Shown: positions 9,143 through 60,259, counted from the whole stretch's first letter. The stretch is DNA of 63,702 bases, filler included, from Hausera hauseri (GCA_046269625.1; 12 parts of 12 records of this genome joined end to end with filler, not necessarily neighbours in it); one strand, 5' to 3'. Numbers and translations: made by a program. Notes: generated from the sequence alone by a model not told the origin.

Positions 9143-9167
9143 AAAACTACGTCTCATTAGCATTAAT

Positions 9168-9512: not shown

Positions 9513-9658
9513 TATAAACAATGACGGTAAGTATAGGACAGTTCGGCGATATGGGTGCATAGTTTTCATCTATCTGTCTAGGTTTACCGAATCTTTCATT
9601 TACGCTGCGTTCTAACTGTTGTAATACAAGCAAAACCGGCACCATCGATGACAACACA

Positions 9659-10021: not shown

Positions 10022-10058
<37 letters not shown>

Positions 10059-11805: not shown

Positions 11806-11853
11806 TAAACAAACTGCGTCATCATCATCATCATCATAGTCATCATCGAGATC

Positions 11854-13270: not shown

Positions 13271-13277
13271 CAGACAA

Positions 13278-13651: not shown

Positions 13652-13751
13652 NNNNNNNNNNNNNNNNNNNNNNNNNNNNNNNNNNNNNNNNNNNNTTAAT
13701 TAATTAANNNNNNNNNNNNNNNNNNNNNNNNNNNNNNNNNNNNNNNNNNNN

Positions 13752-23747: not shown

Positions 23748-23990
23748 TTGCTTTCCTTTGTTTGACGGACGAATTCATTTGCAATTTGATCACTCCATTC
23801 ATTTATCAACGGCATATTTATATCATCGATAAAAAATGACAATTTTTTACCAGCCGGCGGACTAAACGTTGTGCCTACTCGTTTCTCAACAAAACACTCA
23901 ATGGAGTGCAGAATTAATGCTGGAATAGTAGCAGATGAAAAGTTAAAAGATTTAGAAATATGAGATTCAGGATTATATTTTGCCATAAGC
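23748..23990 (-). pseudogene. DNAH5: ~80-codon internal fragment of an axonemal dynein heavy chain (DNAH5/8-type AAA3)
   Basis: [75 protein letters not shown] (cf. [21 protein letters not shown]...[44 protein letters not shown]). Confidence 0.9.
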
Positions 23991-24815
23991 GATAGCATTC
24001 TAGGATCATTTGTGACTGAAGTAACAACTCCATGTGCAGATGAGGTCGTAGGTGACACATTGAGAGACAATTTATATGAATCTAAGGCCGAATTTAAAAA
24101 ATTATCATTATTAAATTCGTTCATTGGAGACTGTTGGGAACCATGTAACCAATTAGTAATTGATTGGAATTGGTTATTAAAAATGCCATTACCAAATGTG
24201 GATGCATTGCTAGGAAACGACTGATCTTGACTTAACGAGATATTAGATATAGAGCAAATATTAGTCTTAGATATATATTCGGGATTTATTTCTTTTTCTT
24301 TTGCATTATCTTTTATAATTTTCAGCAAATGTGAATATATTTGGGGTGCCTCGTCGCTTTTGAATTCAGAGTACTTTAATTTAGAATCATATTTCGATAC
24401 ACCTTTTTCCTGAACATAGTTTAAATCTATGCGTTTATTTAACTTTCGAGTTTTCAAAATGCCGGCTGCAAGTTCCCGGGACATACCTGATAGGTCAATT
24501 GTTTCATTAGTATTACTTGGGCCTCCTGTAAACCATTCAGGTTTCGAGTCACTCAAATTGACATCGTTCGTATCTTTGTCACATCCATTTCGTGATTTTG
24601 ATTGATAAGAATAATACTCAACTGGTGAATTTCGATTACGATTAAATTCATATGACACATCCTCTTCGTACCCGTATCTTTGTTTAGAATTGTAATAATG
24701 GGAATGTCCCGGACCGTAGGAATTGTGACGCTTAGAACCGTCAGTATACCAAAAATATTTATAATCACCTCGCAACCGCTTTCTGTATCTTTCATTGTAA
24801 AAATGTTGACAGCTT
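23991..24815 (-). pseudogene. EIF4ENIF1: Fragment of eIF4E-transporter (4E-T/Cup-like) including the Cup-homology motif
   Basis: [20 protein letters not shown] at ~24485-24545 (cf. EPEWFSAGPTSQSETIELTG), preceded by an R/Y/D-rich region; boundaries approximate. Confidence 0.7.
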
Positions 24816-26733
24816 TTATTTTTCCTAAAATCGCTAATCGGTCTGATTAGACTGACATGTATAAGGAAAACATCAGTTGCATAATCTGCTGTGGACTTCA
24901 AAAAGTAATCCAATAGCTCTTCGTCAATTTCATCGAAATATTGAGCTCTTATCCGTGAAATGAAGGACTTGGATTCTTTCATCATCAAAGAAGATTCATC
25001 TGTTTTATCGGAATTATAGAAATTCTCTAAATGAACAGTTGAAATAATTTCTTCAATGGACTTTTTAATATTGTCGATCAATGGTTGCATGACAGTGGTT
25101 TGTACTTTCAAACAATGATCGAGCTTTTCATGAATAATCGATTCGTTTATTTCAGACAATCGCAGTTGGAGAATAACACTCTGATTAATGGTGTTCTTTA
25201 ATTTACTAAGCAAATTTATAATCTTAAAGTTCGCCTTTTGATTGTTTGTCGCAGGTGAAATTACCTGACCTGCATCGGTATCTGAAATAACACGACCTTC
25301 GAATTTCGTACAGATCAAATCAATCATTTTCCCGACATTGCGACAAGCTTGCATCAGTAAATTAGAATCCACAGAAGCCAAAGTAATTTCACTGGAAACA
25401 TTTCTCACAAAATTAACAACATCTTCATCGGATGGCGAATGTTCGTCTTTATCAAATGCAACTTCGACGATTTCAAATAATTTTGACAAAGATTTTTATA
25501 GAAACATCTGTTCATATTCCAAAAGAAACGTTCGAAAGTATTTTTGACTTGTCAAATTTTCGTATTCTATCGACATTTTATTACTGTCTGATGATACTTC
25601 AACAAGAGAAGACAGTTTACTGTTGAGATCGATAAACAATTTCAACAGTTTCGGATACTCATTTTCCAGTGTCTGTCGAAGGAATCCTGTTTGATCTGAC
25701 GACAGGGAAGTTTTAAAAGATTCTTTAAGAATGTCTGACATCCACTTCTGATAATAATACCCGACATAAGATACCGTATCGGTAAATAGTTTATTACAAA
25801 ACTCGTTCATCTCATATTTTTCTGAATCGTTTTGTAAATTCTCAATTTTGGCCAACAGCAAAATAAGGGACATGTTTGCCTCAATATGGTTGACCAACTT
25901 ATCTATCACAGTCCAGAAAGCAGCTCTGAATGCTGCCCCTTGACCAGAAGTCAGAATTGCAGCTTTTCCCGGTCCTTTAACGCCACTCGGACTTGGTGAT
26001 GCCTTCTGTACTGATGCCAACAGAGTTCTTATGTCCAGAACTTGTTTTACATTTGAGGAGAATTCGTTTTGAGAATCAATGACAATTTTATTAACACTAT
26101 AAGAGAGAATCTCCAAATTTGAAAAAACTTGCATTGGGATTCCAAACATTGGTTACTGGTTTCCTTGAACAATTTCACCATATTCCATGCCTCGTCGGTA
26201 AGACTGTTGGCGGTAAGTGTTACGAAATCGAGATGTTGCGCTAAAAATTTTATTCCAGAATAATCTGTTGTACTAAAAACATATCTCAGTTCATTGACAG
26301 TTGTTGACGCTTTGCTTGTATCTCTTTTTTGATCTTGCAATATCGTTACTAAACTACTTATCCGATTTATTTTCCTCAAAGTATCGCAAATGTATTGCAT
26401 ATTAGTCAACTGTCTAATCTTCGTTTCCAAACTGTAATACGGTTCAGCAAGCTTTGAACGAATTTTGTCGGTATTATTACGCAAATTACTCTTTCTGCTG
26501 TTCATCATTTCCAACACTCCTTCCAACTTTTCAATGCCAACTGCATGACTCATCAAATCGTTGTGTTTTGACGCAATATGACATTGTATTTTTTCATGAA
26601 GACTGTTGATCTCTGACTCAATTTGTAACAGAACCTTTGACGTATCTTTCTGCTTTAAAATTAAATTTGCTAAAGCTGATGCATCTATGCTATCATAGAA
26701 AATAGTAATATAATCATAGTTTGATGAATTCAT
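24816..26733 (-). pseudogene. COG5: COG5 (conserved oligomeric Golgi subunit 5), near full length, intronless, one frameshift, one in-frame stop, C-terminus missing
   Basis: [84 protein letters not shown]. Frameshift near 26150; TAA at 25496-25498 followed in frame by KSLSKLF. Confidence 0.9.
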
Positions 26734-27079
26734 AGAAAATTACGATAATCACAAAAAAGGTTAATCCAAATAAATATAATCCCACTTCTGACACCAGTGT
26801 CGTTTTCACGTATTTGAATTAATTCCACAAATGGTACGATAAAATTCCAAAAAAAGAACGAATTTAGAATAAAATTCCAATCACGTATGAATTCCAAAAA
26901 GGGCTAACTGTATAACTTTTTATTAGTTACAATTAACAATTAATGATTATTTTCAAAACATCAATTTCTTTTTAAAACAACATATATACATGATTGTCTA
27001 TATCTATATATATCATTAGCCAGTTTCCGTACAATTTGTGCGTTTTCGAAATTTCTTCCGTACTTGGATTGTCTATTTA

Positions 27080-29890: not shown

Positions 29891-30589
29891 TTAAATTCGT
29901 TTCTCCGGTTATTATGAACTGTTGTCGTCAGATTTTGTACCATATCTTTGAGTCTGTTATTATTACCGGAGGATGGTTTATCTTCCTCCTTTTCGAACAA
30001 TTTTGACCAATTTACTTTTCGCAGCAATTTCCTAGCAGCTTTCCATACTAAACTTATGGCCTTGCTAAACTCATTTTCTCGACTTGGGTTCGTCTTCTTA
30101 GCTAAGTTCAGCAATACTTTCCTTAATTTTTCTATTGTATTCTCTCGTCGGTTAAGGTGCTTTTTGATAATTTAAAACGAGAATTTCTCATCGTTCTAGC
30201 TGCATTATATGTCGCTTTCTCTTTATAGTCTAACACGTCACCACGGAGGCTGGCGTAGTTCACGATGCATATTAAATTTTTTATCAATTCGACTAATTCT
30301 TCATTATCCGCATTGCAAGTCGGTATCGAGGTTTGTCTTAATTATCTAATCAAGTCTCCATTGTAATCAGTTTCTTCGCGTATTTTCCTAGGTCAACCAA
30401 TTGGGCGCTTCTGTGTTACAGTAGTTGGTACGATTTAACTCTGTGTCATTAATTTTTATCACATTGTTCCTTGTCCTCATCTGTTCGCAAGTACCTAAAG
30501 TACATTGCAACATCTCGTACTCCCATGATCTGTCCTACACATTGTTCAGTTTTGGCCTTGCGTGTGGCTTCTTTAGTTTGTTCGTTAGC

Positions 30590-30820
30590 GTTTACAGCCA
30601 CTATTCGGTTTGTTTCGTCGGGTATCATCCCAATGTCTATTAATTGCTCTAGTTCATCTAAGATTCTGCCTCTAAAATAGAATCTATAGTTTAGTTCATT
30701 TCTACCACTATTGTTTAGGAACCATTCCTTTACGTCTCTCACAAGTGAACACGTTGTAAATTCGCATTCTTTTTCGTCCATCCACTCAGACGACATCTCC
30801 ACTCTTAATGTCACCTGAGG
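30590..30820 (-). other. Ubiquitin-like domain in the retroelement polyprotein (copy 1)
   Basis: LRVEM...EFTTCSLVRDVKEWF..NSG...YRFYFRGRILDELEQLIDIGM...RIVAV aligns by eye with ubiquitin TIENVKAKIQDKEG...[21 protein letters not shown]. Confidence 0.65.
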
Positions 30821-32791
30821 TTTAGCCCTTAAGAATTTAGCGTATTTTTTATTAAAAGCTTTGGCACAGCGCTATAAATTAATTTTTTACTCGATAATTT
30901 AGTTAGAGAAGGAATAAGTTGTCTTAGCCTATTTTTAGTATTACTTACGTTAATTAGTTCGATGAAATCCTTGTCAGTTAGTGCTGAATCCAGAAGCATA
31001 TCCATATTGAATCTCTGACTCTGGGTACATTTCTGTTTCACATAGGCGTACCGGAGTTTTCGGGTTTTCGACAACTATCGCATCAAAATACGCATCCCAT
31101 TCTACATCATTCTGGTTTTGGGAAGTCTATTGTCGATGGGAATGTCTGGTGGTTGGATTCTATTGGCGTTTTGTACCATTTCTCTTATTTCACGTAATTT
31201 CTGTTGCATCTCGGCCATTCGTGATGTTCGGAAGCAGAGTCCGTTACCGGAAGTCTGATATAACAAGGTTAACAAGTAGCCACAATCATCTGCTTGAATA
31301 AATCTTTGTTGATAATTAGTTAGCTCGAACGTTATTTCTCGTTGACATCTCTGTATGAATTCTGATTTATTTCTGATTCTGTCAGAGCATATTTGTTTCT
31401 GTACGGATCCAATTCTCTTGTTAGTTCCTCTATTTCGGAGTTTCTTTGGTTGGAGCGAATTTGGGTTTACTGAGCGTGACGTATCTGATTCTGAAATTGT
31501 CCCAATTTTTCGTCGTCAATTTCGGCTNNNNNNNNNNTCTACTAATTGCAACGTTAACTTACGCATCTTGAAAATTCTGGAGTCTGGGTCAGTTTCGTCA
31601 ATAGTCTCTTCACGAACCCGATTTCCTCAGAAGTAAGTTTGTGATCTTCGGTTATTTCCATGAGTTCGGTATGCCATTTTTATCTGACCCTTTTATCCGT
31701 TTATTGGGATACCGTATTAATTTCAAAACTCATATTGTCAGTTCTTAATCTGGACAAATATCTAATAGTTTTATTTCCTAGATTGAAATTTCGTTCACAG
31801 GTTCAGGCCATTTTTTCGATTAGTTGGCTATGATAGGCTTCGTCAGTATCGTTTTCCCTAATGTTTTATAAGCATCCTTTAATCGTCATCTGGGTCTTTT
31901 ATAAAACTCAATCGTGCTTACGTAGCCAACTTCATCCTTGTACTCGTCGAATTCTAAAATACAAGTTTTTATTATGTCTTGAGTTTTTTCATTGTAAACA
32001 TTATTCGGTTTCTGAAATACAGATTTATGATCGTTTATCGTTTTCAGTCTGGATACGTGTCTCCAGGTTTTCGTATCGTTCGGTTGCGGTAGAAGCAACT
32101 TTAATCATTTCCATTATGGGAGGAATGTCTATCGGGTTTATACCATCTTGTTCATAAATCGGCTTTCCTCTGAGTCGATTAAGCATTGCAGACCTAATTC
32201 TGCGCATTACGTGCTCTAAATTACGTTTTACTCTTTTCAGCTTCGGATTTGCTTCTAGTATGGTCAACAATTTCTCAGCTTTCTCCACTTTTACAACGAC
32301 ATTATCTTTGTTTTTACTCCATGTTTCTGAAAATTCAACTCACTCGTGACTGTATCGAGTGATTGTCAAATGGCCTGCCATTTCCACTCACGCTCCGCTG
32401 AACACCCATACAGAAATACGCGTCACTTGTTACCTGACACGCTGCTGAAATTATACCGCATTTTCTCCTAGTCCAGGCCTTACAATTCCCTGACAGGGCA
32501 TGGTCCACACAATGGAAGCATCTCCCTAGAGGAGTGCAGGAAAGGCTTTCACTTTAAACTCTTTAACAGAATGCAAACTGTGAACTCTGTCCGTTCGGTG
32601 ATTTCGTTTGTCTAAAAATGAGATTACACGTTTTCTGCTCTAAATCTGACCCGAGGAATAATTTTGCTTGTGATTTTCTTTTCTTTTTTTTNNNNNNNNN
32701 NNNNNNNNNNNNNNNNNNNNNNNNNNNNNNNNNNNTTAATTAATTAANNNNNNNNNNNNNNNNNNNNNNNNNNNNNNNNNNNNNNNNNNNN

Positions 32792-33214
32792 CAGTCATCA
32801 AAACAAGCAAGTGGTGATTACGGTTCCTTTTGTCATACGTTTAACAATTTCAATGTGAAATCAATAACGCTTACGAGAAATGTTGATTTTCGGGAAATGT
32901 ATGCAACGGATTTTACTGATGATAAACAGGATTATACTGAGGCCTATGTGCAATCAATCATTCGTAATGTGGGTATTATAGACAGTGATCGGAATAATGG
33001 TATTACGATGAAGGATTTTAAAGTCATCTATATATTTTTCACTTTTCTATTGGCACCGGACTTTCAAGTTGTTCAAGCACAACTTCCGAATACCGGTAAT
33101 CTGAAATTAGATGTCCGATTTCAGGAAGCTGTAACGGAATCAATTAAAATGTATGCTTATGGAGTATTTGATTTGGAAATTCAAATAACAAAGGATGGTG
33201 TTGTCGTCGTATAG
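32792..33214 (+). CDS. Polinton major capsid protein, C-terminal part
   Basis: FNNFNVKSITL...YTEAYVQSI..NNGITMKDF..FFTFLLAPD...GNLKLDVRFQEA...YAYGVFDLEIQI. Confidence 0.88.
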   Translation, partial: QSSKQASGDYGSFCHTFNNFNVKSITLTRNVDFREMYATDFTDDKQDYTEAYVQSIIRNVGIIDSDRNNGITMKDFKVIYIFFTFLLAPDFQVVQAQLPNTGNLKLDVRFQEAVTESIKMYAYGVFDLEIQITKDGVVVV

Positions 33215-33329
33215 AAAATAAAAAAACAAACGTGCATACCGACTCTACAATAGTGTATTATGAAGTATGTTGTATTATGTTATATAACAACGTATAGTTT
33301 AATTAGAACGTTTCAGATGGATATTATTA

Positions 33330-33645
33330 TAACTGAAAAACAAGGCAGTAAAATATTCAGTTTCATTTTTGCTGGAAAGGTTGCCAGATTATCTACAACC
33401 CGGAGCATATGTTATCAATATCCATTCTAACAATTTACCAGGAGAACACTGAATTGCCATCAGTGTTCGTCATGATATTACTCGTGTATTTGATCCTCTT
33501 GGTATGTATTATCCAATAAAACTTGATACAACATTGGAGAGAATGCAACAAGCGGTGGAGTACAATTCCGTCCAGTATCAGAACCCGTTAACAACTTTAT
33601 ATGGAAATTACTGTATAAATTGACTTCTTACCAGTATCATTGACT
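33330..33645 (+). pseudogene. Adenain-like (adenovirus-type) cysteine maturation protease
   Basis: YVINIHSNNLPGEH*IAI..VFDPLG...YNSVQYQNPLTTLYGNYCI: catalytic H, D and Q present; catalytic C mutated to Y; internal stops. Confidence 0.85.
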
Positions 33646-33693
33646 TTTCGTATTGGTACAAATATTTATATTTTGTAATTGAAAAAAATCATT

Positions 33694-34174
33694 ATGTCAG
33701 TGTCTTTTATCGATTATAAGCGTTTATAGATGAGTATAGTAATTATATAATAAAGAAATTATACATAATAGATACCTGTAATATTTTACAACCAATATAT
33801 TACGTGTTCAAACCTAATTTCCAGTGGTATATGTTATCAACGAAAAACGTATTACAAATATGTTTCTGACCCGTCATCGACATGGTCTTTTACGGAACGA
33901 GGGATGTGGTATACTTGATGTCGAAAATATTATGGGCAAATTAACATCTCCATCACTTTATTATGTCAAATATCATATTAACTGTCAAAAGATAAAAACA
34001 TTAAAGTACTACTTTCCTGGATTACGAATAGTCAATTACAGTGTCAATGCCAATGATCTTATGAATGTTCCTAACAATATCACCTGTCTATGGCACGATC
34101 ATGTTGAACATTGTTCCTACAAAAATGTATACAATCACGTGTTCATAAGTTGCCACAGAAATAAAATTTCTTAA
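33694..34174 (+). pseudogene. Conserved Polinton ORF (DEDD exonuclease-like remnant)
   Basis: YIIKKL...RITNMFLTRHRHGLLRNEG...C-terminal CLWHD..HCSYKNV pattern; frameshifted. Confidence 0.55.
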
Positions 34175-34261
34175 CATATATTTCTTCAATTACTACTTTC
34201 TTTTACACAAAAGTACGTAACGTACTTTTAAAAATTAATACAACTTAACACTAAAATTTTT

Positions 34262-36960
34262 TTGTAATACATATGAATTTGTACATATTCCATCGTCTAT
34301 AATTATTCGTTTATTATCATATTTACTGAGGCTGACCTTTTATATCTGGACTGTTGCTACTGTATGAGCCTGAGATCGGACAGCTTACATTGTGTGCAAC
34401 ATGCATTGTTCTTCATGTAACGGCTTCATAAAATCACCAAATTGTATGTTTTTTAATACAGCACGCTGTACACCCTTTGCACGTTTTTAATAATACCACC
34501 ATCAATCTCCAGCGCATACATTTTCGGTCGAAGGCCAACAAACCGTGTGGTAATAGCACCGTTTACTTCATCTTTAAATATTCCAAGGACTTTTTGTTTT
34601 GTGTTGAATAATTTGGATGGTCCATCGGATAATCATTCGTGTTCATAAATGAAGCCATTTCTCGAAACTCCTCACATATGTCCGATGACTGGATTTTATA
34701 CATGAAGGAGTCTGTGTCCATGTACATCAACTGAAGTCGATTCAGTCCGAACTTCGGTAGCATTACGTTGTAGTGAAATTCATACATGAGTAATTTACTA
34801 ATGTCCAAAATGCACATCCTGATATATATTGGTTCATTAAATACCTGTTGGGTTTCTTCCAAATGGATACTGATGATATTTTCAGAATAAATTTAAGAAT
34901 TCAGGAGATTAGTCTTGGCAATTAGGTTTTTTGTCCTTTTCCAATCATGCACCAGTTATATGTGCTGCCTATTTCCGATATTCTCCATGGTTTTTCCAAA
35001 TACAGAATAATTGTACAACTTAAATTGATCCTTTTCGAAATTTTTTTTGTCTCGTGTTCGTTAATCTTTATTGAACTGAATGTATGGCCGTAATTACGTG
35101 GACTGACTCAATTTTATTTTTCGATTAATATTCGTAATTTTTAATCAATATTTGATTGCCTGTTGGAAAAATTGATGCAATACTACATATTTCTGTCGAC
35201 CAACGAGATGGGAAATTAATTTTTTAATTTTGTTGCTTGTGCTTTCCCGTGGTTTCAATGTTACCGGTAGAAATGGTAACTCATCATGTTGTTCATGTAA
35301 AGTTTCAGGGTAATCAATATCCACTTTAAATACGTCACCAGTTGATGCAGTTTGACTTATATTGAGTATGTCTTCATCCATGTTTCCGGTCCATGTCATC
35401 AATTTAAAATCTCCGTACGGAAAATAATGCAACATTGCCCAACCGTACAAATTATTTGCACCTAAATATGTAATATACACATCCGGCTGGTTTTCTTCGT
35501 GTTTATCATACATATACTTGTTATTCGCAGCTGAATATCGATGTACGACTTGACATAGACATCCTCTTATTCAGTTTTCATCCATTAACAGCATATCGTA
35601 ATCCTTTAGTATTTGCAGCTTAATCTTGATCATCTTTAGCATTGCGCTACGTGCCATTCCTGGTGCTGTGAAATGATAGGCTGGATCGACTTTGTGTGGA
35701 ACCATTGTTACTGCACGAAAACTTTCAAACACATCGGTCAATATTAAAACATCGGTCTTCAAATATATGTCACTGTATTAACCGAGGTTTTCACAATTAA
35801 ATGCTTCCAATACTTTTTGTGCATGGCAGTAATCTTCATCTGACATATTTGATTGACAGAAGGAACTGAAAAATGCCTCTTTCTGCGGCAGTACTCGTTC
35901 TTCCAATTTTCTCCAGTCGGTTATGTATTCGTATGGGAATATACCTTTCCGTTTAACCAAACTGTACAATCGATCATCATCAAAGTGCCACATGGTTTCC
36001 GTAAATGCATCTGGCGGTAGATTTCGTGCCAGTTAATCGAGACTACTGCATATGAACTTAAAATTATCGGCGAACCGCAATTCAATATAACCCGCATGTT
36101 TCACAATCGTTATGTACCTTTCTTGATTATGGGGGATTACAATTATACGACCTTGTAATTCACCGAGTTCTCGAATAAAAAAGTGCGAATCGTATCCATA
36201 TAAATTGTGAAATATCACTGGGATAAATCGTACCCGTTTACATACCAAATTGCAATTGTATTTGAACTCGGTATTTTCCGGTAAAGTGGTCATGACTATG
36301 TGCCTTGTAATTTTTTTCCGTAAATGTATTTTCACACACGTAACACACTGTTGCTTGGTTGTGATGTTCTCTTTCTTTCTTCCGTAATACTTCCACAGGT
36401 TTATTAGCCATTATTTCTACATTCACGGCAATTTCCTCCAACTTCTTTATGAATACTGCTGCTGCATTCGGTCCTCGGTGCAGAAACGGTTCTTCGCTGT
36501 AACCTTTTGCAAACATACAAAACCATGTTGGTTCATGTATGTGTTATCATTGTAGAAGACTGACCGTTTTGTGGATTACATGTATGCACTGGTTGTAACT
36601 TGGCTTAAAAATCACAGTAAATTACAATGAGAACACGTATTGTTTTTTCGTATTCTTTAAATTCTGTTTTTTTGAATAGTACAGCTTATGCTGTTCCAAT
36701 TTCGTTTTACCGTAGTAGTGCATTAAACATCGTTTGCATATAAGATAAGCGGCTTTTATTTCTGTATATATGTGCCTACCAATCTGCTGCAATGAGAAAT
36801 GTATACAAAATGACTTTTATCTTCATCACTTATCAACAACAAATCTCGGTGATCATCATTTTCTTCTTCACAGATTTTCAAAGGATATATTTTCCTTGTT
36901 TCCTCTTCTATACCGAATACATTGATTGACATATTATTATTGACCTTTTCAAAAATTTTG
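34262..36960 (-). pseudogene. Protein-primed family-B DNA polymerase (pPolB) with endonuclease-VII-like insert, decayed
   Basis: FEKVNNNMSINVFG, CYVC..HDHFTGKYR, IPVIFHNLYGYDSHF, RKGIFPYEY, KTDVLILTDVFESFR, ANNLYGWAM..PYGDF, SVFGKTMEN, ILDISKLLMYEFHY, YMDTDS, FVGLRPKMYA. Confidence 0.95.
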
Positions 36961-39129
36961 AGTAAATCTTCATTCTCCTGATAGTAGATATTTCCTCTAT
37001 CCATTTTATATTTATTTTTGCTCCCCTCTTTGTTTAGACTATTACGAATTTTACGAACTTCTTCATCCTTTGCTTGTTCTTTGGCTATAGCTTCGTGTGT
37101 AATTGGCATGGTTAATAATATGTACATCTCTTCGTTGACTTCTGCATTGTGTACTTCATATATCATAATCTGAATTAAATAAATCATTTTGTAGTCTTGT
37201 GTTTTACATTTCCTTGATTTTATTTGTTCAATGTTTGAATAATCATACTTATTAGTTGATCGGTATCCTTTGTGCATTTATTTCGTATTGATTTGGGTAC
37301 ATCTAGATGAACTTTCTGCGAATAATATTCCTTTAGGTCCTGCATATCATCGTAATCAAAGTTGATATGGTCGTTATGGTCTTGATAGATGTCACTTTCC
37401 TGAAGTCTTGATAGAAAGTCTGCGTTAGCGTTTGCTTTTCCTTATCGGTATTTTATTGAAATTTCTAAGTCTAGGATTTCTGCAGCCCATTTCATTAATT
37501 TTCGGCTGGTATCTCGTTGTTTCCTTAACCATTGTAAAGGTTTCTGATCAGTGTATTGGATTAATTCTCGTCCAGTTACATAATATCTGAAATATCGTAA
37601 AGCATATACTATCGCGTAACATTCTCGCTCGATTGTTGACTATCTACTTTGTGTTTCGCTTCATGTTTTACTGAGACATGCTATTGTTCCTTCACGTGGT
37701 GTGTCAGGAACCGATTGTCCTAAGACTGCACCTATAGCGTAACAGATGGCATCGGTCATTATTATATAGGGATATTTGGGATCAGGAAATTGTAGTATTG
37801 GAGGTGAAGTAAGAACTTGTTTTAAAATCTCAAATGCTCTCTGATGTGTTTCTTCAGAATTTTATGTTGTTCTTTTCTTAGTTAATTTTACTAGTGGTTT
37901 GACTATACGTGCAAAATTATATACGAATTTTCTATAGTAGTTAGCCATTCCTAACAGTCTTTGCAATTCTTTGAGACATTTAGGCGATCTTAATTTCTTT
38001 AGTTTCTCTACATTTATAGGATCAGGTTGAATTCCTTTACTTGACATTACGTCCGAGGAAAATGAGAGTATTTTTAGCAAATTCACATTTTTTCAACTTA
38101 ATTTTTAAATGAGCTTGTTTCAGTCTCTCAAATACTTGTGAAATGTCATTTAAGTGCTGTTCGAAGTTTTCGGAAAATATTATAACGTTATCTATGTACA
38201 CCATACAACAAGTTAGCCCTTGCAATACAAACTTCATACATCTTTGGAATGTAGCGGGTCCTCCTGTCAAACCAAAAGGCATAGCATTAAATTCCCATAA
38301 TCCATTTCCAGTAGAAAAGCTGTTTTTTGTTTATCATCTTCGGCAACTTCAACTTGCCAAAATCCGCATTGTAAATCTAGGGTGGCGAATATTGTGTCAT
38401 TTCGTAAGGCCGTAAGCATCTCATCTATCTTTGGTAATGGATAATTATCTTTCTTTGTGACATTATTTAGTACCCTAAAATCTACACAGAATCTTTGTGC
38501 TCCATCCTTTTTCTGCACTAATACTACTGGAAATGTCCATGGTGAGAAACTTTGTCTGATAATACCGTGTTTAATTATTTGTGCTATTTGTTTATCGCAT
38601 TCTTGTTTCTTGACTTCAGCCATTCAATACGGGTCTTGTTTAATAGGATTTGTGTTCTCTGCGATTCTATGATATTGAATAACGTTAGTTCTACCGATGT
38701 CATTTTCATTAATATCTATAATATCTCAATATTTGTAAAATAGTTGTAGTAATTGTTTCAATTGATATGAGGTTAATTCGTCTTCTTTAAATTTGATATT
38801 TTCATCTTCTACTAAGAACGTTGCTGCACATATTTTAACTGGTTGTAACCGTCCTAAGTTGAGGTTTTGCCGTAATCTAATTGCCTTTTATTGATACTTT
38901 CTATTGGCAATTCTAAACAGTGTACTCCTTTTGGCACAAATAAGGGATATTGTAGAATCTTATATTTTTTGTTATTATGTAGATTTGGTTCGAACATGCA
39001 GGTTTGCTTGTGGTATTGCGGTGGTATTGTGACCATCACCACTACTCGTTGCTGGGGTTTGATAATAACGTCATGAGTCAAGGTCATGTTGATTTCCTCA
39101 ATCGGCAAATTGGTCATCGTGTATTTAAG

Positions 39130-39440
39130 GGTTTGGTTGATAGGTCCATTGAGAGTCCTGAATTTTGTGATAATACGTCCATTCCTATTACTAAGGGTAC
39201 TGACAATATTTTATCCTCTATCACAAATAAGGTGGTAGTGTGAAAATTATCATCAATTCTTATTCTGATGCTTATTTTTCCTAAAAATTGTACTTAAGTG
39301 GAGTTTGCGGCTGCTATTACTATATCGCTTGGCATGATTGCTCTTTTTTGATCGTCAGTTACGTATAAATATCTAATCATTGATACAGAGCATAATGTTT
39401 AATCCGTTAAATCGTACTCGTACATAGGGGTTATTTCCTG
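39130..39440 (-). pseudogene. Retroviral-type aspartic protease (family B), active-site motif deleted or frameshifted
   Basis: NPYVRVRFNGLNIM[..]SMI...IAAANS...FLGKISIRIRI...LFVIE...LVIGMDVL; its N-terminus shares ORF 39373-39849 with the env tail. Confidence 0.7.
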
Positions 39441-39849
39441 TTGTCAAAGTGGCTTGGGTCATAAAAATGAATTTTGTATTATTTCGTCGAATGTCCGTTT
39501 TATTATATTGTCGGAGTATATTTGGTGGATAAGCAGAACTTGGTAGGCGTGTATATTTATCTAAGTCTCTTGCCATCAGAAGAACGTGCATGGACGTGAC
39601 ATTTATTTCTCCATAATCAAAATATTCTGGGAATTCATCAATAGGTTCGGGCTTATAGTATGTTGGTGCTTCTGGCTCAAAGTGTTGTCTAGCTTTCTTT
39701 CTTAATAATTTATATTTAACCAGATATTCTTCCACCGTTAACTTAATAAAAGCTTGTAACTGTTGCTCTAGTTCTGGGGCTAAACGAAGTTCTTTTATTA
39801 ATTTGTCAAGTTCCTTTGCACGCCAGTACATTAATACTGATTGAGCCAT

Positions 39850-41680
39850 TGAAGGGAAACATCACAGCATAATTTGGCATGTACAACCACGTACTTTCTT
39901 TATATTTCTGGCAGCTCCTGTATGTCTTAATATAACCACTGTGGTAGTATTTATAACATATATACCGAAAACTCTAGGCATAACTTGACCAAAAATAAGA
40001 AATTCATTCAAGAAATCGTAAAGAACCTTTTTAGCTGTTCTTTCTAAATAGTCGCTTGGTAGTAGCATTCAATAATTAGGCACACCATCTGATCCTTTTG
40101 TAACAGTATATACAAATTCTGTAATGACTTTTTCTCGGATGTTCTGAAATAATACCTGTTTTCTTACCGCTTCCAGGTAAGAATATAATCCACTGGTGGG
40201 AAGTTCTCTACTTACTTTAAATTTTATACCTTTATCCCATGGTAATAATCCAATTGTCTGTGGTATGTTCATCATAGTTGGTTGGTGTGTTTTGGTCCAT
40301 CTTCCATCACTGAGCTTGAAGGCTAGATAGAAGTCTTTGTAACACGGTGCAGAGGTGATATTGTTGGGTAAGAACAATTTTCGAGCGATAGGATCCACAT
40401 ATCCGATTTGTATTATATTTTTCTCAATATACTGAACCATTAAATCGTTTGTGCAATTTTCTCTTGTAATTGTTATTGGGGTTACTTCAGTTGGCGGGCA
40501 TTGGTATACGTGAAGTATCTCGCCTTGTACTCTACCAAGTGTTCTGGGACGATATCCCATAATTATGGTTATATGCTCCGGGAATTCTCTGGCTAATATT
40601 ATGTCATGCTGATTCAATTTTTGAGTAATTTTGCAGTTTCTCAACACCATCATGTTTTATAACTCAACTAAATCCATTTTTGCGGTGTGATAAATATAAT
40701 CTCTCTTGTATTCGTATATAAGTGCCACTTTATGTCTTCAGTTGGTAGCTTTCCAGTATCCGCAAGGGTTACTCTCGTTACAAATAATTCTTCATAAGAT
40801 GTATAATAAATGGCATTTAATCCGAAAGTCGATATTGCTCATTTGCGCGACAACACAATTCCGTCTTTATCGCTGGATGGCATTAGGACTTTCAAGGAAG
40901 TTGTTTGCTTTAAGGTTCTTGGAGTAGGTAAACTTATGTTATGGTTATGTACAGGTTTTTATATTCGTCAACATAATATAAATCACCTTGTATTTTGTAC
41001 ATAGATACGTGTTTAAGGAAATATACTGGGCATATCACTGATGTTTTTCCCAGACTAGCGTAGATTCTCCTAATGCACACACTCCATCAGAATATGTACA
41101 AGATGGTGCAGTTAACATTTTTCCTGTAATTGCATCGAAATTTATTTTATATTCCTTTATGGTGACGGTGAAATCTTCTATTTGTACTACAGCCGATTCT
41201 TTTTGTCCATTTATCATCATACTTTCTTCTTCTTACGCTCTACCATATCCGGGCCATATTGGTGAACAAACTCGTTTTCCAATGCATGTCTACACGGGGT
41301 GTTGTAAACCTACGTGAATTGAATCCGTGTTTTTTCTACAATTTTCAGCAGCAATTGTTACGGGTTTCGGTAGTCCTTGTGGAATAATTACAGAATTCTA
41401 CGAATTATGACTACAGATATAAGCAAATACTACCTTATTAACTTGGCATTCCTTTACTTGCACTTGTTGATAACTGATTCTTTTATACAAATTATAATTG
41501 TAAGGACATTCCTTCTTTAATGATATCGGGTTTGCATTCTGACATTTACCTATATCTACCAGTGAAAGTCTGGCTATTATTTCGGGATTGGAACAATCGA
41601 AACTTCTAACGCTTTCGTAATTTTCATGCTGCTCAATGCTATTAAGTATAATAGAAAATCAATGATTTGTACCATCCAGT
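39850..41680 (-). pseudogene. Chuvirus-like envelope glycoprotein (family B)
   Basis: Signal FLLYLIALSSMKITKA|LEV(F)DCSNPEIIARLSLVDIGKC after correcting one frameshift; CTYSDGVC; RNCKI; GRVQGEILHVYQCPPTEV; CTNDLMV; SGLYS; TM FLIFGQV..FGIYVI. Confidence 0.82.
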
Positions 41681-44592
41681 CTAAGATATTAGTGTCTTTG
41701 GGATATATTAATGTAGTGGGGTTAAATTTCTTGAGAATTTCATCCAAACCACCTAGTTTCGTTACCCAATCTTTTGTTAGTTTGTCCATGTGATGGGCTA
41801 AATCTCTTACTATGTGGTGTAGCTTGGCATCGACCTTGTTTGATTATTTTAAACTAACCATTATGCATCCCAATGCCATCAACAATCGGTTTTGATCACA
41901 TTCCTTTAATAGTCGTGTCAATACTTTATTTAAACTTCCTTTCAGCTTATATTTGTGTAATAACCGGGTAATTTGTGATGAGAAATTTCTAGCAGTCTCG
42001 ATTTTGGATTGTAATGGAATTATGGTAATTATTGGTATCTTTTTGAGTTGGTTTGTGTTAGCTTTCTTGATTAAATGTTCCAAAAGTTTATGAGTGGTCA
42101 ATGTTACTTTGGTACATTTGTTTCGCCCTGGTTTGATGTTCCTGGGACAGAATTTTTTATTTGCTCATTTTCATCATCGCTAATAGTCAATCGTTGGAAA
42201 TTGTCATATAATATATCTTCTAATGTTTTCCTCTTTTCCTTACGATTTCGTGACAAAGATCTCTTCTTCCTTTGTTTTTCTGGATTTTCTTCATTGGGAT
42301 TTTCTTCGTCATCACTTATTGGATTAAAATCGCATTTTTGTGCTCTTCCGCCTTTTTTCTTAATGCCAAATTCCATGGTAATCTGATGAATCTTTCCGGT
42401 AAGCTGTCAGTAATCTACAACATAATAATTGTCAACGGTTAACCTGCCATAAACATCGGTTTTCGCTATTATATTGGTTTCTAGATCTAATTCATCTAAT
42501 ACCTTCCTTCGTAGATCCGTAAATTTAGTGAACATTCCTGCTGTTACTTCGATTACGTGTACCCGCTTATTGCTTTTGATTTCTATACTTATAATATATG
42601 ACTTTTTTCGTCTGTTTTCGTCTTAGGTCTCTTCCTAGAGTTTTAATAATTTTCTTGCTGCTGAAAAACAGAATATATCATCCTTTGTAAGTGGCAGGAG
42701 TAATGCTGCACATTCTATTGGACTAGCTGGTGGTAGTGACTCATATTGTCGTAAATCATTCCATACTTCGTTAGGTGCTGAATCAGCCATTTGTAATTTA
42801 TCTTTAATTATTTCAGTTACTGATTTTTGAGGTTCTCTGTATAGTATAGATCCTGGTGGAATGTTCACTTCCGGGATGTCCTTTGGCTTTTCGATCGTTA
42901 ATATTGTAGCATCGGGGTACTAAATCATATCCGGTATAAGTATGAGTTCATCATCTACTAAGATTTCAAATGCTTAATCTTCATCGACAACTTGTGGTTC
43001 CATTTTGGATGTACTTGGCTGTATTGGATCCCAAATACTGTAAAATAATGTCGGTTTCTCGAGTGGAACCTTAGATTGGGGAAGTGGTGCGACAAATCTA
43101 TCATTATAACGTTCTATCCATTCGCCAGTCGGTCTTGTTCTGACGAGTTCGTGTGAATATTCGTTCGAATCCATATCCGGGTGTCTTTGGGCAATTGGTT
43201 CGATTTCTGGAATTGCTCTTGCTTCATCAATTTTCTCGAGTTTTTGTACTGCTGGAAAAGCTATTCGTAATGTTTCCTGGCTTTCTATTATCTATGGTAT
43301 ATTGTATTCTAATCGCACAGTCTTTAGGTATTCACCTGGACATCTTTGTGCCATAATTTCTGAGTTATGACCGTGGTATAGGTCTAAACATTTGTAGGTT
43401 CTGTTAGTTTGTTCCAAATCGTAGATGGTGGTTAAATTTACTGGATTTATTTTCAATGTATTTAATAGTTCTGGCAACTGGCGTCCGATGATTATCTTCC
43501 CTGGTAAATATTTATTCATAAATTCACTTACTGACTCTTGTCGTTGAGAATTAGATCGTCTACTGTATTCGGTGTACTTCGTAGTGTCTGGTATATTTGG
43601 ATACACATGAATATTGTGAATTATTTTTCCTTCCAAATTTTTGGTAGCAGCTTGAGTAAGTCCTTTCTGGTCTCATTTGGTTGTACATCTACCTGTAATG
43701 ATTATTTCTCTGTCGTGCGTTACAGTTTCATCCGCCGTTAATACGGGTGTTTCCTTAAGTAACTGTATTAAGTATATCGAATAGTTGTTCAAAGGTTAAA
43801 TCTGACAGTCTCCTTCGTATGGATAATTAAGAAGTATCTTAGTTTCTTTTGAAACAATTACCGTTTTATTGTTGATTTGTAACCGGGCTTCTCTCTGATT
43901 AGTAATTATAACAAATGGCAGGTCATTTCTTTTAATCTGAATATCAGTCTTTTTATATAAATTTTATCAATACCTTCTATACAAATTGATCCTCGTTTGG
44001 CGATATCTGCAAACTCTATTCGGTTAGATTTCTTGTCGTTGAATATTTTGTATCAATTTTGAACTATATCTATATTCATACGCCGTAATGTTGCTTCTGG
44101 AATCAAAATGGTGTTGCATGTTATCTCTTGTTCGGGATATCTGTCTTCTTTAAACCAGGGTCTTCTTGGAAAAATATAATATGGAGTTCCTTGACGGTTA
44201 AGTTTAATTTTCTATTCTTGACGTAAGTTGATTAATCGCTGTGTTAATGTACCTTCTCTTTTCCATTGATCATTTGGTAGATTGAAGTTCTGATCTGTAC
44301 TAAACGTACCAAAGATATCTGTTTCCTTTAAATGCAGTTGTTTAAATAACCATGGTAATCTATTCCAACGATAAGTTTTCCACAGAGTAGCTGTCTAAGG
44401 TTCTTGGAACATTTTTCTTGCTCTATGTGTACCTTTTCTAACTCAATTATAAAATTACCTTTGATGTTTTCTATTCCTATTCAATTAATTTCNNNNNNNN
44501 NNNNNNNNNNNNNNNNNNNNNNNNNNNNNNNNNNNNTTAATTAATTAANNNNNNNNNNNNNNNNNNNNNNNNNNNNNNNNNNNNNNNNNNNN

Positions 44593-47500
44593 GCGCCAAA
44601 ACTTTTAATCAAAGAATATGCCGAATTTTTAAGGACAAGGCCCGAAGAAGTAATTAGAGTAAAAATAACGGCGGACTGGATGGATGAAAAGGAACAAGAA
44701 TTCACTACACACTCCTCTGTAAAGGATGTATTACTGTGGATAAAGAATAATGGATACGCCCATGAACTAAACTATAGACTCTATTTTAGAGGAAGGATAC
44801 TGGACGAATCGGAGTTACTGATAGAAGTTTGAATTATTCCAGACGAGATAAATCGATTAGTGGTGACCATAGCTATCGACGAGACAAACGAAGAGGCTAT
44901 AAGGAAAGCTAAAGCCGAGCAGCAACTAGGACAAATAATAGGAGTCCGAGATGCGGTAGTATATTTCGAGTACTTACAAACAGGTGAAGATAATGAGCAA
45001 TACGATATGTATTTAGTACCCCTTACTGATAACACACCTATCGTAACAAAACAGAAACGTCCGATCGGTAGACCGCGGAGGGTACGAGAGGAGAACGACT
45101 ACAATGGAGACCTGATTAAAGAATTGAGGCAAATGTTCATACCAACCTTCAGTGCAGATAATGAGGAACTGAACGAACTAATGAAGGATTTGATACGAAT
45201 AGTAAGCCACTCCAACCCTGACGGTGATATGTTAAATAAGAAAGAGAAGGCCATATTTAATGCAGCCAAGGCCATGAAAGGCCTCCGGTGCAAAGTAACC
45301 AAGAGTACCTTAAGTGATGAAACGATAATTGAGAAAATTATGGTAGAAAATACCATGGAGAAACTGAGGAAGGTGTTGCTGTATCTGGCCATCAAAATTA
45401 ACCCGAATAGAGAAAACTAATTTAACAAAGCAACTAGCTTAGCAAGGAAGGCCGCTAGGAAACTGCCTCGAGAAGTGGACTAGACGAAGTTATTTGAAAA
45501 AGAAGAAGGTCATCAAGCTAGACTTTCCTTCGATAGCAATAGATTCGGAGACCTGCTACGAAATCTAACTGGGAATTACAGAGGAAATGAATCGAATTGG
45601 TTAATAAACTTTCTGGTCATGACGATATTGATAAAACAAATGGGTGCAGTCACGGTATATGATTGTGACAAATTTAGACTTGGATAAAAGTACTCACTAA
45701 TGGACTTGGAAATGTGAGGACGCGAGACCACACAAATTAGAAACAAAAAAAGAGTTACGTATTATACCAACAACGTAAACTAATTGCATTGGATGGGGTG
45801 GAATGTATGTTGCGACGATCTCTCAGCATCTTTCATTGTGGGCTGATACATGGACACTCATCAATAATCAAACCGACGACTCCACCAATTCCGATTAATT
45901 TTGAACGACAACATTGTAAGCAAGCAAGAGAGACGGGAAGAATAAAGTGGGATGGCATGAAACTAGAGATACAAAAAGAGAAAATAGTCAGAGTATGCAA
46001 AATAGCAGTCGGAAGGCTAGACATGCACACGGGACATTGCCAAGGTGCAGAATACGATACCGGAAAGGGATTAGAGCCGAACGTCGTAGTAGTAGATTTT
46101 TATGAAACTAAAATGCGAATGCAGAAAGTGGTGTTCCTTAGTGTTACTAAGCTTTACACCGAGAACCACAAATGCCATATTCAGGATGGCACGTGCCCAT
46201 TCCGGAATTCCGTAGTAATTTGTGAACCTCCAGCCAAGACTGATTGTAATTTTATTAGAATTAAAGAACTGAAATTCAACGAGACAACGGGAAAACGATA
46301 GATAAGTAGCCCGGAAACTAACTCTAAAACGCGAGAGAATGTGACCGAAAAATCCACACCTACAATACTGATTTCTGACGATCATGGATTAAAATTTATA
46401 AAGAAAGACATGCTCTCTAGATGCGACGTCGTAATGTATGCTACCAATTACAAAGCATTTTTTGTAGCCGAGACAGAAATAAACGCCAGAACGTTCAAAC
46501 TCGAGACTCAGGACATCCGGATTAAATACTATTTGAAGAACAGAGATGACTATTTCTACTATAAGAAACAAGCCGGAATAGCCAAATTATACCGTAAAAT
46601 GATAACAAACGACTGTAAATTGGATTTGGAAATCATGAGAACTAAATTAGCTCTAATATATGCAAATCCCGAGTTGGCATCACCAATAATTCCGATGAAG
46701 GAAGGTATTTTTGGACGAGTAACCGAAGAAGTATTATTGACGTATGAGTGCGAAAAGAAAGACGTACCAATTGACGTGGAAGAAAAGAGGTGTATACAAG
46801 AACTTCCAGTGATATATCAGGACGTACCGAGATTAGTAACACCAATTACCAGAGTGCTGTTGGCAAACGCCACTTTACCGACAATTTTGAGAGATTGCAA
46901 AACGACTTTAGGAGAGCCAATGTTCAGACGAAGTGAGACTAATTGGGTGATTCTACCAAACGGTAATATTATCGCACCACCTACCAAGTTGACAGGAACA
47001 AACCTGATAAAAGAAATAACCGATGATAAGTTCCAGGATACAGCCGCAAAAGGTATTTATCGACCAAAAGTAGTAGAGGCATTTAGACAATTTCTTGCTT
47101 TTCCCTGCCAACGTACCCATGAATTAAACAGAGCGATGTATACAATATTAGAGGATTCGCGCTGTCAGTTAAAATGGGAGTCATTGCTTGGTGTTGGCTA
47201 TTATAAAAAGGTAACTACAGAAATTTTATACAAAATTTGGGGAAGATTCCTAATATTCGGACAAGCTGCATCAGGATTTCTAGCGATATACTTTCTAATT
47301 CAATTGGTAAAAGCTATAATTTAGTCAATCATAAATGGATATGAAATATTTACCTTTACATGATTTTCTTGCAAAATTTTAACGGCTATTATCATTCCTT
47401 TTGGCAAATTTTTAAAGGATTATGAAGAGAATAAATGGAAAACAAATGTAGAACGACACGTTGGCTATCACAATAGGAAACGTAAAAGACGCCTAATTGA

Positions 47501-49304
47501 TTACAGGCAAAGATTCTTAGATAGTAAGACACGAAGAAATAATTCAGATGATGACGAGCCTAATGGAGGAGACGTCCTCTTCAGGTCAAACAGATACAAA
47601 AATTACTCCGTTATAAAACTACCATTACCCATATTGCCGCCAACGGCGCCTATATATGAAGATTGTGAGAAACAATCTATGAGTTCGTGCCAGATAGACC
47701 TCTATTGGAAGCCGTTTAGTTTAGAGAATCCTTACGAAGGAGCAAAACGTTATGGGATACTGCGTAAGATCCACGAAACAGAGAAAACCTCGATTCCACA
47801 CCATAGATTAGCAGTCGACGACCACGGTATAATTTACTCGCCCAGAATACCTAAGCCGAACAAAACTCAATCGATATTTACTCGACGCCATGAAGCACAA
47901 AATCGTCGAACCTCAGATGTTCAACCGACGGTTAGAAACCAGAGAGTGGAAAAGGCGAATGAAACAAGTAATGCACTATACCCAATTGGGGAGTTAAGAC
48001 AGTTGGTCGAGCAGCCAGTTGGGACCACTGAAGTTACCATTAACGGTTACAAGGTGTCTACCATACGACAATCCAAGATAGCACCAAGCTATTACGATAC
48101 AGGGATCAAAGGCAGGCCCTTTGCAAAGATTCAATTGGAAGACTGGGAGGTTTATGCACTAATAGATACAGGATTTGAAATATCACTGATAAAATATAAT
48201 TCGATACCACAATTCTTACGAAAACAATTATATCCACCTCCTACGACGGACCCAGGAAGCATTGGAGCTTTCGCACAGTCATCAAAACCGGATAAATTAC
48301 TGTTAAGTAAAATATTGGATTGCATGGAGCCCAAGAATCAAAAAGAATTGAGGCATTGGCTAGGATTATGTGGATATTACGCCACTTACGTGCCAGAAAA
48401 TGCAAAGATAAATGCACCCTTGTATCGCTTATTAAAGAAAGGGATCAAATGGAAATGGACCGATGTTGAACAAAAGGCTTTTGATGAAGTGAAGAAAATT
48501 CTAACTAGCGAACCTGTTTTAAGATATCCCGATTTCAACCTGCCGTGCATAATCAAAACAAACGCCAGTAAGGAAGGTATCGGATATGAACTGGCCCAAA
48601 AACAAGAAAACGAGGATTTGGAACACCCGATTGCATACGGAGGACGTTCTCTGAAGTCAGCAAAAAAGAACTATTCTGTTTCGGAACTAGAAACATTTGC
48701 ATTAAAAGAAGCACTGCGGCATTTTAATGTATATGTCTACGTACAAAAGATCATTATCGTTACGGATCATAAGGCAGCTACGACTTTGAAAGGTAAAGCA
48801 AATAACCCAACTTGTAGACTCAACAGATAGATTGAGGAGATATCGCGATATAATATTGAGTTCCAATACAAGCCCGGAAGTAAACATGTCGACGCTGATG
48901 CGTTATCGAGACTTAAAACGAAAACAAGCGCAGTTATAGTAATGAGAAAAGCTCACGTTGAAGACTTAGTAGAGAGACAACGGATCCTCACACTGGATAA
49001 GACACTAAAAATTTCTCTCGAACAAAGAAAAGACCGGGTTATACAACAGAGTATCGAGTTTATAGAGACCAACGTAACACCCAAGGGTCATCAGTTACGG
49101 AAACACTTACGACGATATGGTCACAAATACTGCGTCGTTGGAGATTTAAACCGCGAAAATGTGTTATATTACGAACGAAAGGAACGGAAACTAGTTGTCA
49201 TACCAAAAGGATTACGAACGGAAGTACTCATGGCCGAACATGATTTTTATTTAGCTGGACATATGTCGTGAAAAAAGACATTAGAAAGGATTTTAAAAAA
49301 GTAT
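44593..49304 (+). mobile_element. Family-A env-bearing Gypsy-like element, copy 2: UBL, AT-hook-like motif, env, tail, PR, (RT core deleted), RNaseH, start of integrase
   Basis: ALIDTG protease; WLGLCGYYATYV RT thumb; KTNASKEGIG, YSVSELETFAL, TDHKA, HVDADALSR RNaseH; VIPKGLRTEVLMAEHDFYLAGH integrase Zn-finger. Confidence 0.92.
45598..47430 (+). pseudogene. Chuvirus-like envelope glycoprotein (family A, copy 2)
   Basis: AVTVYDC, IFHCGLIHGHSS, HCKQARETG, CHIQDGTC, NDCKLD, GRVTEEVLLTYEC, CIQELPVIY..LVTPITRVL, GIYRPKVVEAFRQFLAFP, WGRFLIFGQAASGFLAIYFLIQLVK: same motif order as chuvirus/Jingchuvirales glycoproteins (YDC..LSLLD.G.C, YYCG.HSH, GEV...KC, CY.ELPV, GIY....LR..I.FP). Confidence 0.88.
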
Positions 49305-54442: not shown

Positions 54443-55843
54443 CTAATCAGCGTCACGTGATTGGCTGGTTGATGCAGCCGCCCAGGCCTGAGTCACTGGG
54501 TCTTTGTTCAATGTAAGCCTTATCCTTTTCTTGGCAATTTCTTTTTGGATATCGACGTTGTTTTCGATGAGGAATTGATTCCTGTTGCCTTTTGAGTCAT
54601 AGAGCATTTGCTGCCCACACTGATAAATTTTGAGACGTTTAATACAGGCCTCTTTTTGCAATGGGTCCATTTTTATGGGCCAAAAATTGTTTTCTGAATT
54701 GTAGGTGAAAATAAGGGGGATCTTTGACGGAATCACCACACTTTTGTAAAGCCCCCGTATGGATCTAAATTATTTTGAGTCAAATATTTAAATTTCAATT
54801 GTACCTGTTATCATTTGCGTGATTGCATTGAATGATTGCGAGGAATATGTCTGGGGCTACGTCGTGGAATCCGACGTCATCAAACACTATTAGGTCATAT
54901 TCCCCTGTCCAATCATAGGGGCAGCCGTGCATGGAATGTAGTATCAAAGGGTTTTTTCCATGACTCAGTGCGAAACTGGTCTTCCCGATGTTAGAAGCAC
55001 CAAATAATATCGCACTATTAATCCCTTTGTCCGGTTGAAATTCAATAGGTGGTATCAGGAATGTGTAATTATTGTTTGCCACATATTTTTCTCGAAATTT
55101 GTTCCTGATGTAATTATTGAGCAGACGGTTTTTAGTCACGTATTCTGCTCTGTCCCCATCCTTCATTATTTCTAGGGCGTGCTGTATCGTGGGCGCCTCA
55201 TCAAACATTTTATAAATTGCTTTTTTCGACGTATTATCTTTGAAGATATTTATGGGAGGCGTGCCCATCGATACAATTAAGGCATTTTCGAATGTCTTCT
55301 TGTAGTGATATTCGTATACCTAAATTGAATTAAATATGCAATAAAAGAAATTTGAGTCACTTTTAATATATCACATCTGAATGGGAGCACCCAACATCCC
55401 AATATTTTGACATAAAATTGCGTCGGTAGGGTATGGGTGTATAAATCAATACGTGTAAATGATGGAAATTGTTGCTGCTTATTTCCTCTTGCAGCCTTAT
55501 GAACCATTTTCTTTTGAGGTAAAGTGGGGTATAAAATGACTCAAAATAATATCTGGCGTCCATGTCTGCATCTAGTGCATGGACAAGCATAAAGTGCCTG
55601 AAGGTAGCACTTCGTGGGGGCATTGCTAAAGTTCGTACATTGTCAGGGAATTTATTTTGCAATGCTGTGAACGTATTTTCATCGAGCATCGTATCTTTAA
55701 ATAATGGGACGTCGATTTCTGACAAACAATGGAAGTTCCGTTTGTACTGGCTAAAGGAGGGGGGAATATTATGCAAATAAAAAAAATTATACATACGTGT
55801 TCGTTGTATTGCCAGCATTAATAATATTTATATTATTTTCCAT
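54443..55843 (-). CDS. rep: CRESS-DNA-virus-type Rep (HUH endonuclease + SF3 helicase), 419 aa, exons 55843-55797, 55750-55375, 55319-54805, 54764-54443
   Basis: Removing three GT-AG introns (46, 55, 40 nt) gives a stop-free 1260-nt CDS with motif I (FMLVH), motif II (EEISSNNFHHLHVLI), WDV..SHSD, motif III (YHYK), Walker A GASNIGKT, Walker B IVFDD and motif C IFTYN. Confidence 0.88.
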
Positions 55844-59302: not shown

Positions 59303-59402
59303 NNNNNNNNNNNNNNNNNNNNNNNNNNNNNNNNNNNNNNNNNNNNTTAATTAATTAANNNNNNNNNNNNNNNNNNNNNNNNNNNNNNNNNNNNNNNNNN
59401 NN

Positions 59403-60252: not shown

Positions 60253-60259
60253 ATCCACT

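Follow-up and report, generated by a model that had tools for sequence, protein, structure and literature searches.

A decayed, most likely Burro-like Ty3/gypsy element from Hausera hauseri with a chuvirus-type envelope region ahead of protease, reverse transcriptase and RNase H

Nematode NERVs, which Sacco et al. are said to have described in 2022, reportedly carry an env of RNA-virus glycoprotein origin ahead of pol in nematode hosts. In the giant, gypsy-like Burro/GYPSM1 elements of planarians, according to Arkhipova and Yushenova (2019, PMC6431247), one open reading frame (ORF) encodes gag, cargo, Ubi2/SUMO-like and BCL-2 domains, env, protease (PR), a dUTPase-like domain, reverse transcriptase (RT), RNase H (RH) and integrase (IN); env, which matches mononegavirus fusion proteins, lies in frame between gag and pol, and copies with stops and frameshifts are also described there. 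An anti-apoptotic role is attributed to Burro1 (PMC13465017). GAG-ENV-POL errantiviruses with an HSV/gB-type envelope are reported from Platyhelminthes, Nematoda and Bryozoa and are described as not monophyletic across phyla (Chary and Hayashi 2026, PMC13524379), with the flatworm elements of that paper comprising nine rows from three free-living species. Here we analyze a window of 63,702 nucleotides from Hausera hauseri (GCA_046269625.1, filler included), in which 12 short contigs of mixed origin are chained by N/linker runs. An earlier note on this DNA had described two diverged families, A and B, with env before pol, and our subject is the family B element (lineage B), encoded by the minus strand of the 11.7-kb contig 32792-44492. 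With good confidence, we read this as a decayed, truncated copy of a multicopy Ty3/gypsy element with env before PR-RT-RH, most likely Burro-like, whose intact form would be a single Gag-cargo-Env-Pol polyprotein. The layout with env between gag and pol is real and conserved but already published; the copy is a new, dead Burro-like element.

Lineage B resembles Burro in the in-frame position of env between gag and pol, in a predicted Ubi/SUMO-like domain upstream, in a mononegavirus/chuvirus-type env and in the PR-RT-RH order. It differs from Burro in that no BIR, MATH, RING or ankyrin domain is seen in its sequenced part, in a 550-residue lineage-specific insert with a possible exonuclease-like domain, and in a more degenerate Bcl-2-like domain; moreover, this copy is missing the integrase and the long terminal repeats (LTRs). 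The elements of Chary and Hayashi share with it a gB/chuvirus-type env before pol in a Ty3/gypsy context, a comparison made by description, with the supplements possibly holding closer elements, whereas Bcl-2, ubiquitin and exonuclease go unmentioned in the main text (PMC13524379). The Anakin elements of mosquitoes, as described by Dezordi (2020), likewise combine a chuvirus-like glycoprotein with an LTR retrotransposon, but one of BEL/Pao rather than gypsy type. Bdelloid rotifer LTR elements are reported to encode a DEDDy exonuclease as a separate ORF3, whereas the possible degenerate domain of lineage B would lie inside the polyprotein (PMC5408684). Literature searches on Bcl-2 with gypsy and envelope, and on Burro with flatworm, gave nothing beyond the papers cited here.

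Along the minus strand, a long upstream region is followed in turn by an internal signal peptide, a PF24664 glycoprotein, a transmembrane helix (TM), a tail, PR, RT and RH, as the earlier note had proposed; Pfam matches (PF24664, RVT_1, RT_RNaseH) and a protease profile built from six relatives bear out this order, and with RT_RNaseH_2 they give the Ty3/gypsy arrangement of PR-RT-RH. The 5′ side is cut at 44492, where the contig ends ahead of an N/linker run. Both previously quoted ORFs exist: 41577-41789 has the peptide M...FLLYLIALSSMKITKALEV, with its motif at 41657, and 39373-39849 extends through the tail to NPYVRVRFNG at 39432. From mid-env into the protease, one frame contains only 4 stops in 457 codons, compared to 36 and 31 in the other two, and its 154-codon tail contains none; when 39376-39861 was shuffled, 0 of 20,000 sequences were open in any frame. 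An alignment to the relative P0011 also runs from env to 39391 without a frame change.

When the env frame was used as a protein query, 101 proteins were retrieved, 20 of which were scanned with Pfam. The best match, P0003 (1963 residues), aligns colinearly with 44492-39826 (49-72% identity), and a single ORF takes it from the upstream region through the signal peptide into env, while P0004 shares 56-63% identity with the upstream region. Env followed by protease in one ORF was found in 12 of the 20 scanned relatives, 5 of which also contain RT and RNase H, and in 8 of the 10 matches at E 1e-30 or better. Env, RT and RH share an ORF in P0009, P0010, P0012, P0015, P0018 and P0105, the last being a sixth such fusion, which came in as a cluster mate of P0008 and carries ankyrin repeats; H2C2 and rve integrase matches follow RH in intact relatives. 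These observations uphold the claim that the arrangement is an old conserved design and no one-off rearrangement, as env stands in frame before protease/pol in intact relatives and the layout is published. No loci related to P0003 were found in the metagenome or viral contigs searched. Runs X1 and X2, in which read depth is not equivalent to copy number, hold many diverged copies across all 30 bins of the whole element, and lineage B is therefore a repeat family.

Three further features of the relatives were observed. NCBI lists P0010 (HBK71150.1), which is a complete env-pol polyprotein, as part of a Flavobacteriaceae metagenome-assembled genome, where it is evidently eukaryotic contamination. 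In P0009, P0010, P0015 and P0105, hydrophobic segments follow the integrase, suggesting that the polyprotein ends in a second membrane protein. In P0005, P0007, P0009 and P0105, retropepsin-like domains are repeated within one polyprotein, and the D(T/S)G motifs number 2 to 6.

The copy itself is heavily damaged. Signal peptide, glycoprotein and protease follow one another as the earlier note had claimed, but the signal peptide and mature env, which are continuous in P0003, are separated here by one frameshift near 41600, and the protease lacks its catalytic motif, no D(T/S)G being found in the copy. Relative to P0003, there are four frame changes between 44492 and 39826, with further ones in pol, and the RT motif reads YIDN. 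No integrase profile match was obtained in the copy, the 3′ side of which is bounded by Polinton-like DNA (a weak DNA_pol_B_2 match lies at 36036-36410, E 0.0025), and no LTR or internal repeat was found in it, truncated as it is by the contig end on the 5′ side and by Polinton-like DNA on the 3′ side. Because of its stops and frameshifts, the missing catalytic motif and the absent integrase, the copy cannot function.

Regarding a capsid in the upstream region, for which the earlier note had suggested structure prediction, a capsid profile built from five relatives matched nothing in the whole window, a PDB search with P0004 found no match, and the AF2 model of the region was uninformative (pLDDT 32). 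P0004 has a weak Retrotrans_gag match at 393-482 (E 8e-4, below the cut-off), about 480 residues ahead of the equivalent of our contig end. Gag therefore likely lies beyond the contig, and the visible 2.8 kb, judged by these comparisons, represents cargo between gag and env rather than a cryptic gag. Accordingly, the description of this region as more than 2.8 kb without gag stands for the copy, but "unknown" does not, for it appears to comprise a ubiquitin-like (Ubl) domain, a probable degenerate Bcl-2-like domain and, possibly, a domain resembling an exonuclease. A Pfam scan of 42860..44114 produced no match, no clear profile match was found in other relatives or in family A, and a search for "shorter" homologues of the upstream region yielded none among 7,996 candidates.

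The best-defined cargo domain is the predicted ubiquitin fold at 42347..42598. An AF2 model of P0003 950-1336, built on 8 rows, contains a beta-grasp domain (pLDDT about 70) that maps to 42598-42347, where P0003 and the copy are 58% identical. This domain matches the ubiquitin family in Foldseek (E 2e-5; TM score to ubiquitin 0.7-0.78) and in VIA (Z 10.7, root-mean-square deviation 1.9-3.2 over about 77 residues), and the model thus predicts a ubiquitin-like domain upstream of the Bcl-2-like region and env. A helical segment similar to 42600..42859 is found by alignment in P0005, P0010 and P0022.

For the helices that precede the signal peptide, profile comparisons point to a probable degenerate Bcl-2-like domain. 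PF00452 matches 3 of 8 aligned rows (best 2.3e-5), the P0003 row not being among them, the Bcl-2 matches of relatives lie directly ahead of env (P0006 against Bcl-xL, E 0.01), and hhalign of lineage B against the relatives' Bcl-2-like profile gives E 2e-4 over 90 columns, compared with 0.18 or worse in all 5 shuffles; a leave-out Bcl-2-like hidden Markov model gives P0003 an independent E value (iE) of 0.046. Structure searches returned no Bcl-2 fold, but the Ubl domain filled their lists, and this is no evidence of absence. At the far 5′ end, a DEDDh-exonuclease-like cargo domain is possible and is offered as a lead only: among the matches listed by ESM for P0003 360-830, most are DEDDh-type exonuclease families, with scores of 0.83-0.88 that fall under the threshold of 0.9. 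P0015, a more distant relative, carries ahead of env, at about 105-300, a segment that by its motif looks DEDDh-like, but hhalign of the exonuclease-like part of lineage B against it gave nothing (E 0.075).

Families A and B are, as had been claimed, very different in sequence, with no blastn similarity and protein identities of 20-24% over env and 34% over RT-thumb/RH. To place them, an env tree was computed with FastTree from 70 rows, namely A, B and 68 proteins that span 330 profile columns or more, with shorter matches dropped; because the search was seeded by B, this sample is biased. A and B fall in one 18-row clade (Shimodaira-Hasegawa support, SH, 100), whose other members are the 12 env-protease fusions of the tree, two fragments, P0003 and P0006; outside it lie 52 rows, mostly free-standing glycoproteins of 600-700 residues. 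The two env regions are homologous, and B, which the earlier note had taken for an independent replicate, is instead a distant relative in the lineage of A, with one arrangement that these sequences indicate was inherited by both. Careful trees of 10-11 rows, in which A is a long branch, were used to compare env with RT/RH. B groups with P0009/P0010/P0105 in both the env and RH trees (84/94 and 77/77), whereas A joins those proteins by env (81/84) and P0015/P0018 by RH (85/92); approximately unbiased (AU) test p values were 0.16 for A with the B side in RH, 0.134 for A+B in env and 0.047 for A+B in RH.

At 48111-48290 (+) the family A copy passes from the protease N-terminus directly into the RT thumb, with the RT core missing, and its RNase H groups with different relatives than its env; the copy is either an internal deletion or a recombinant. 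Ubiquitin-like segments precede its env at 44600-44890 (+) and 30560-30860 (-) (hhalign to relatives 85%, E 6e-6). An hhalign comparison of the B and A Ubl domains gave nothing (E 0.11), and no Bcl-2-like domain was detected when the pre-env helical region of A was aligned to the Bcl-2-like profiles (E 0.07, 0.19).

Several observations weigh against a Burro-like, fully fused lineage B. P0003 ends at a position matching 39826, just behind the TM (contig end or stop), and P0006 likewise ends after env (contig end or stop). Because the nature of the P0003 end is ambiguous, the env-to-pol fusion of lineage B itself is deduced from the open tail of the copy and from more distant relatives. It is thus conceivable that the Gag-cargo-Env ORF of lineage B stops after the TM and that Pol is made by readthrough, frameshift or from a separate ORF, as in many retroelements, in keeping with the in-frame stop of the copy at 39862-39864, a few codons upstream of the P0003 end, and with P0106, a separate pol ORF whose contig has the same length as that of P0008. 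Yet the stop positions of the copy and P0003 differ (39862 and about 39826), the tail stays open in the env frame for its 154 codons into the protease, six relatives run from env to RT without a stop, and P0105, the cluster mate of P0008, is fully fused; we consider a separately expressed Pol improbable.

The Burro-like assignment rests on architecture, because no Burro sequence was placed in the trees; the lineage B Bcl-2-like region has no Pfam match, no ESM support and low model confidence; and no CCHC pattern was found in P0003 or P0004, whereas Burro has one, as do all 6 of the other gag-bearing relatives inspected. Resemblance to Burro could reflect convergence of an independent gag-env-pol lineage of nematode NERV-like or bryozoan-like origin, for which the cargo peculiar to lineage B, the absent CCHC knuckle and the reported lack of monophyly of GAG-ENV-POL elements on the POL tree (Chary and Hayashi, PMC13524379) speak. 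The succession of Ubl, Bcl-2-like domain and env is, however, a Burro-specific match, and B env nests among relatives with Ubl, Bcl-2 and ankyrin cargo, so that convergence, too, seems unlikely. Mere juxtaposition of a chuvirus glycoprotein endogenous viral element (EVE) with a gypsy fragment, or a mis-assembly, might be suspected where short contigs of mixed origin are strung together, particularly as gypsy fragments are reported to flank chuvirus-like EVEs commonly (PMC10084718). The earlier note had named chance joining of env and pol as what would overturn its reading, and this found no support: the colinear, intact P0003 and the fused relatives rule out both chance and mis-assembly, and the open in-frame linker and the many copies that cover the element evenly in two runs also speak against them.

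Standard membrane-protein topology provides that, with one signal peptide and one TM, the segment between them lies in the lumen of the endoplasmic reticulum (ER) and the downstream part in the cytosol. Alongside the observed domain order, the single cargo-env ORF of P0003, the env-pol fusion of six intact relatives and the predicted Ubl fold, we infer from this topology how a Burro-like polyprotein might be routed and cut, and how its cargo might act. Gag and cargo would be synthesized in the cytosol. The internal signal peptide would direct the glycoprotein into the ER and be removed by signal peptidase, and the TM would halt transfer, so that the tail and Pol emerge again on the cytosolic side, attached to Env until they are released by the protease that the element encodes. 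P0003 has a signal peptide and one strong TM, consistent with Pol being back in the cytosol, and relatives have a matching hydrophobic segment followed by a conserved (A/G)(Y/F)DC env start just after the signal. The class III glycoprotein might then allow enveloped particles to form and to fuse with other cells, and the Ubl and Bcl-2-like cargo may act on host ubiquitin and cell-death pathways. Pestiviruses have captured ubiquitin as a polyprotein cut site for host deubiquitinases. More speculatively, and with only a small chance of being correct, lineage B may be a distinct Burro-like branch, possibly of a parasitic flatworm, in which an exonuclease-like RNA-handling module replaced the usual cargo and the GG-ending Ubl is cut by host deubiquitinases. 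If such a cut site or a real exonuclease-like cargo exists, it would add a modest new point on giant polyprotein processing and host defence.

Lineage B extends the Burro-like clade by a divergent branch and shows, together with its intact relatives, of which there are at least a dozen, that elements with env inside the polyprotein form a broad, old group with changing cargo. The layout itself is published; what novelty there may be is small and lies in the lineage-specific insert and the GG-ending Ubl. The features of the copy are compiled in Table 1, in which the dUTPase-like name of the PR-RT spacer is presumptive, being taken from the description of Burro (PMC6431247) without a family match.

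Table 1. Features of the lineage B copy, listed 5′ to 3′ along the minus strand.
Feature	Coordinates	Strand	Basis
Possible degenerate DEDDh-exonuclease-like cargo domain, C-terminal part, cut by contig end	44115..44492	-	Colinear with P0003 394-520; lead only
Lineage-specific cargo region, fold unassigned	42860..44114	-	52-63% identity to P0003/P0004; without Pfam match
Small helical domain ahead of ubiquitin-like domain	42600..42859	-	Four helices in P0003 AF2 model, pLDDT about 50
Predicted ubiquitin/SUMO-like domain, KKKGG end	42347..42598	-	P0003 beta-grasp model; KKKGG at 42361
Probable degenerate Bcl-2-like helical domain directly ahead of env signal peptide	41735..42110	-	Indirect profile matches
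Internal signal peptide	41616..41687	-	Hydrophobic segment P0003 1337-1355 mapped across
Envelope ectodomain of chuvirus/gB type (class III), interrupted by stops and frameshifts	39990..41600	-	PF24664 E 3e-33 (read-through frame 41589-39376) and 1.5e-18 (ORF 40069-40656); 52-57% identity to P0003 env
Env TM helix and short hydrophobic stretch, one in-frame stop at end	39862..39984	-	P0003 1911-1929 TM mapped; helix about 39984-39930
Open cytoplasmic tail/linker, env to protease, one frame	39440..39861	-	0 stops in 154 codons
Retropepsin protease without catalytic motif	39120..39435	-	Profile match 39389-39123, iE 1e-6
PR-RT spacer, possibly dUTPase-like (weak)	38940..39100	-	Profile match iE 0.094; 27% identity to P0009 1250-1301
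Reverse transcriptase, frameshifted	37790..38880	-	RVT_1 E 1e-16; 43-60% identity to P0009/P0010
RNase H	37397..37790	-	RT_RNaseH E 3e-26
Post-RNase H bridge entering Polinton-like sequence	36961..37396	-	Without integrase profile match

Elsewhere in the window, mixed contigs at 59351-60295, 54795-55827, 9069-13703 and 32792-36960 include a bacterial-looking DHH/DHHA2 gene and what we take, by eye, to be a Rep-like ORF pair and Polinton/adintovirus-like fragments. At 19565-26739, pieces of host genes (COG5, EIF4E-T, dynein AAA_7 and RhoGAP) are joined into mosaics that lack introns.

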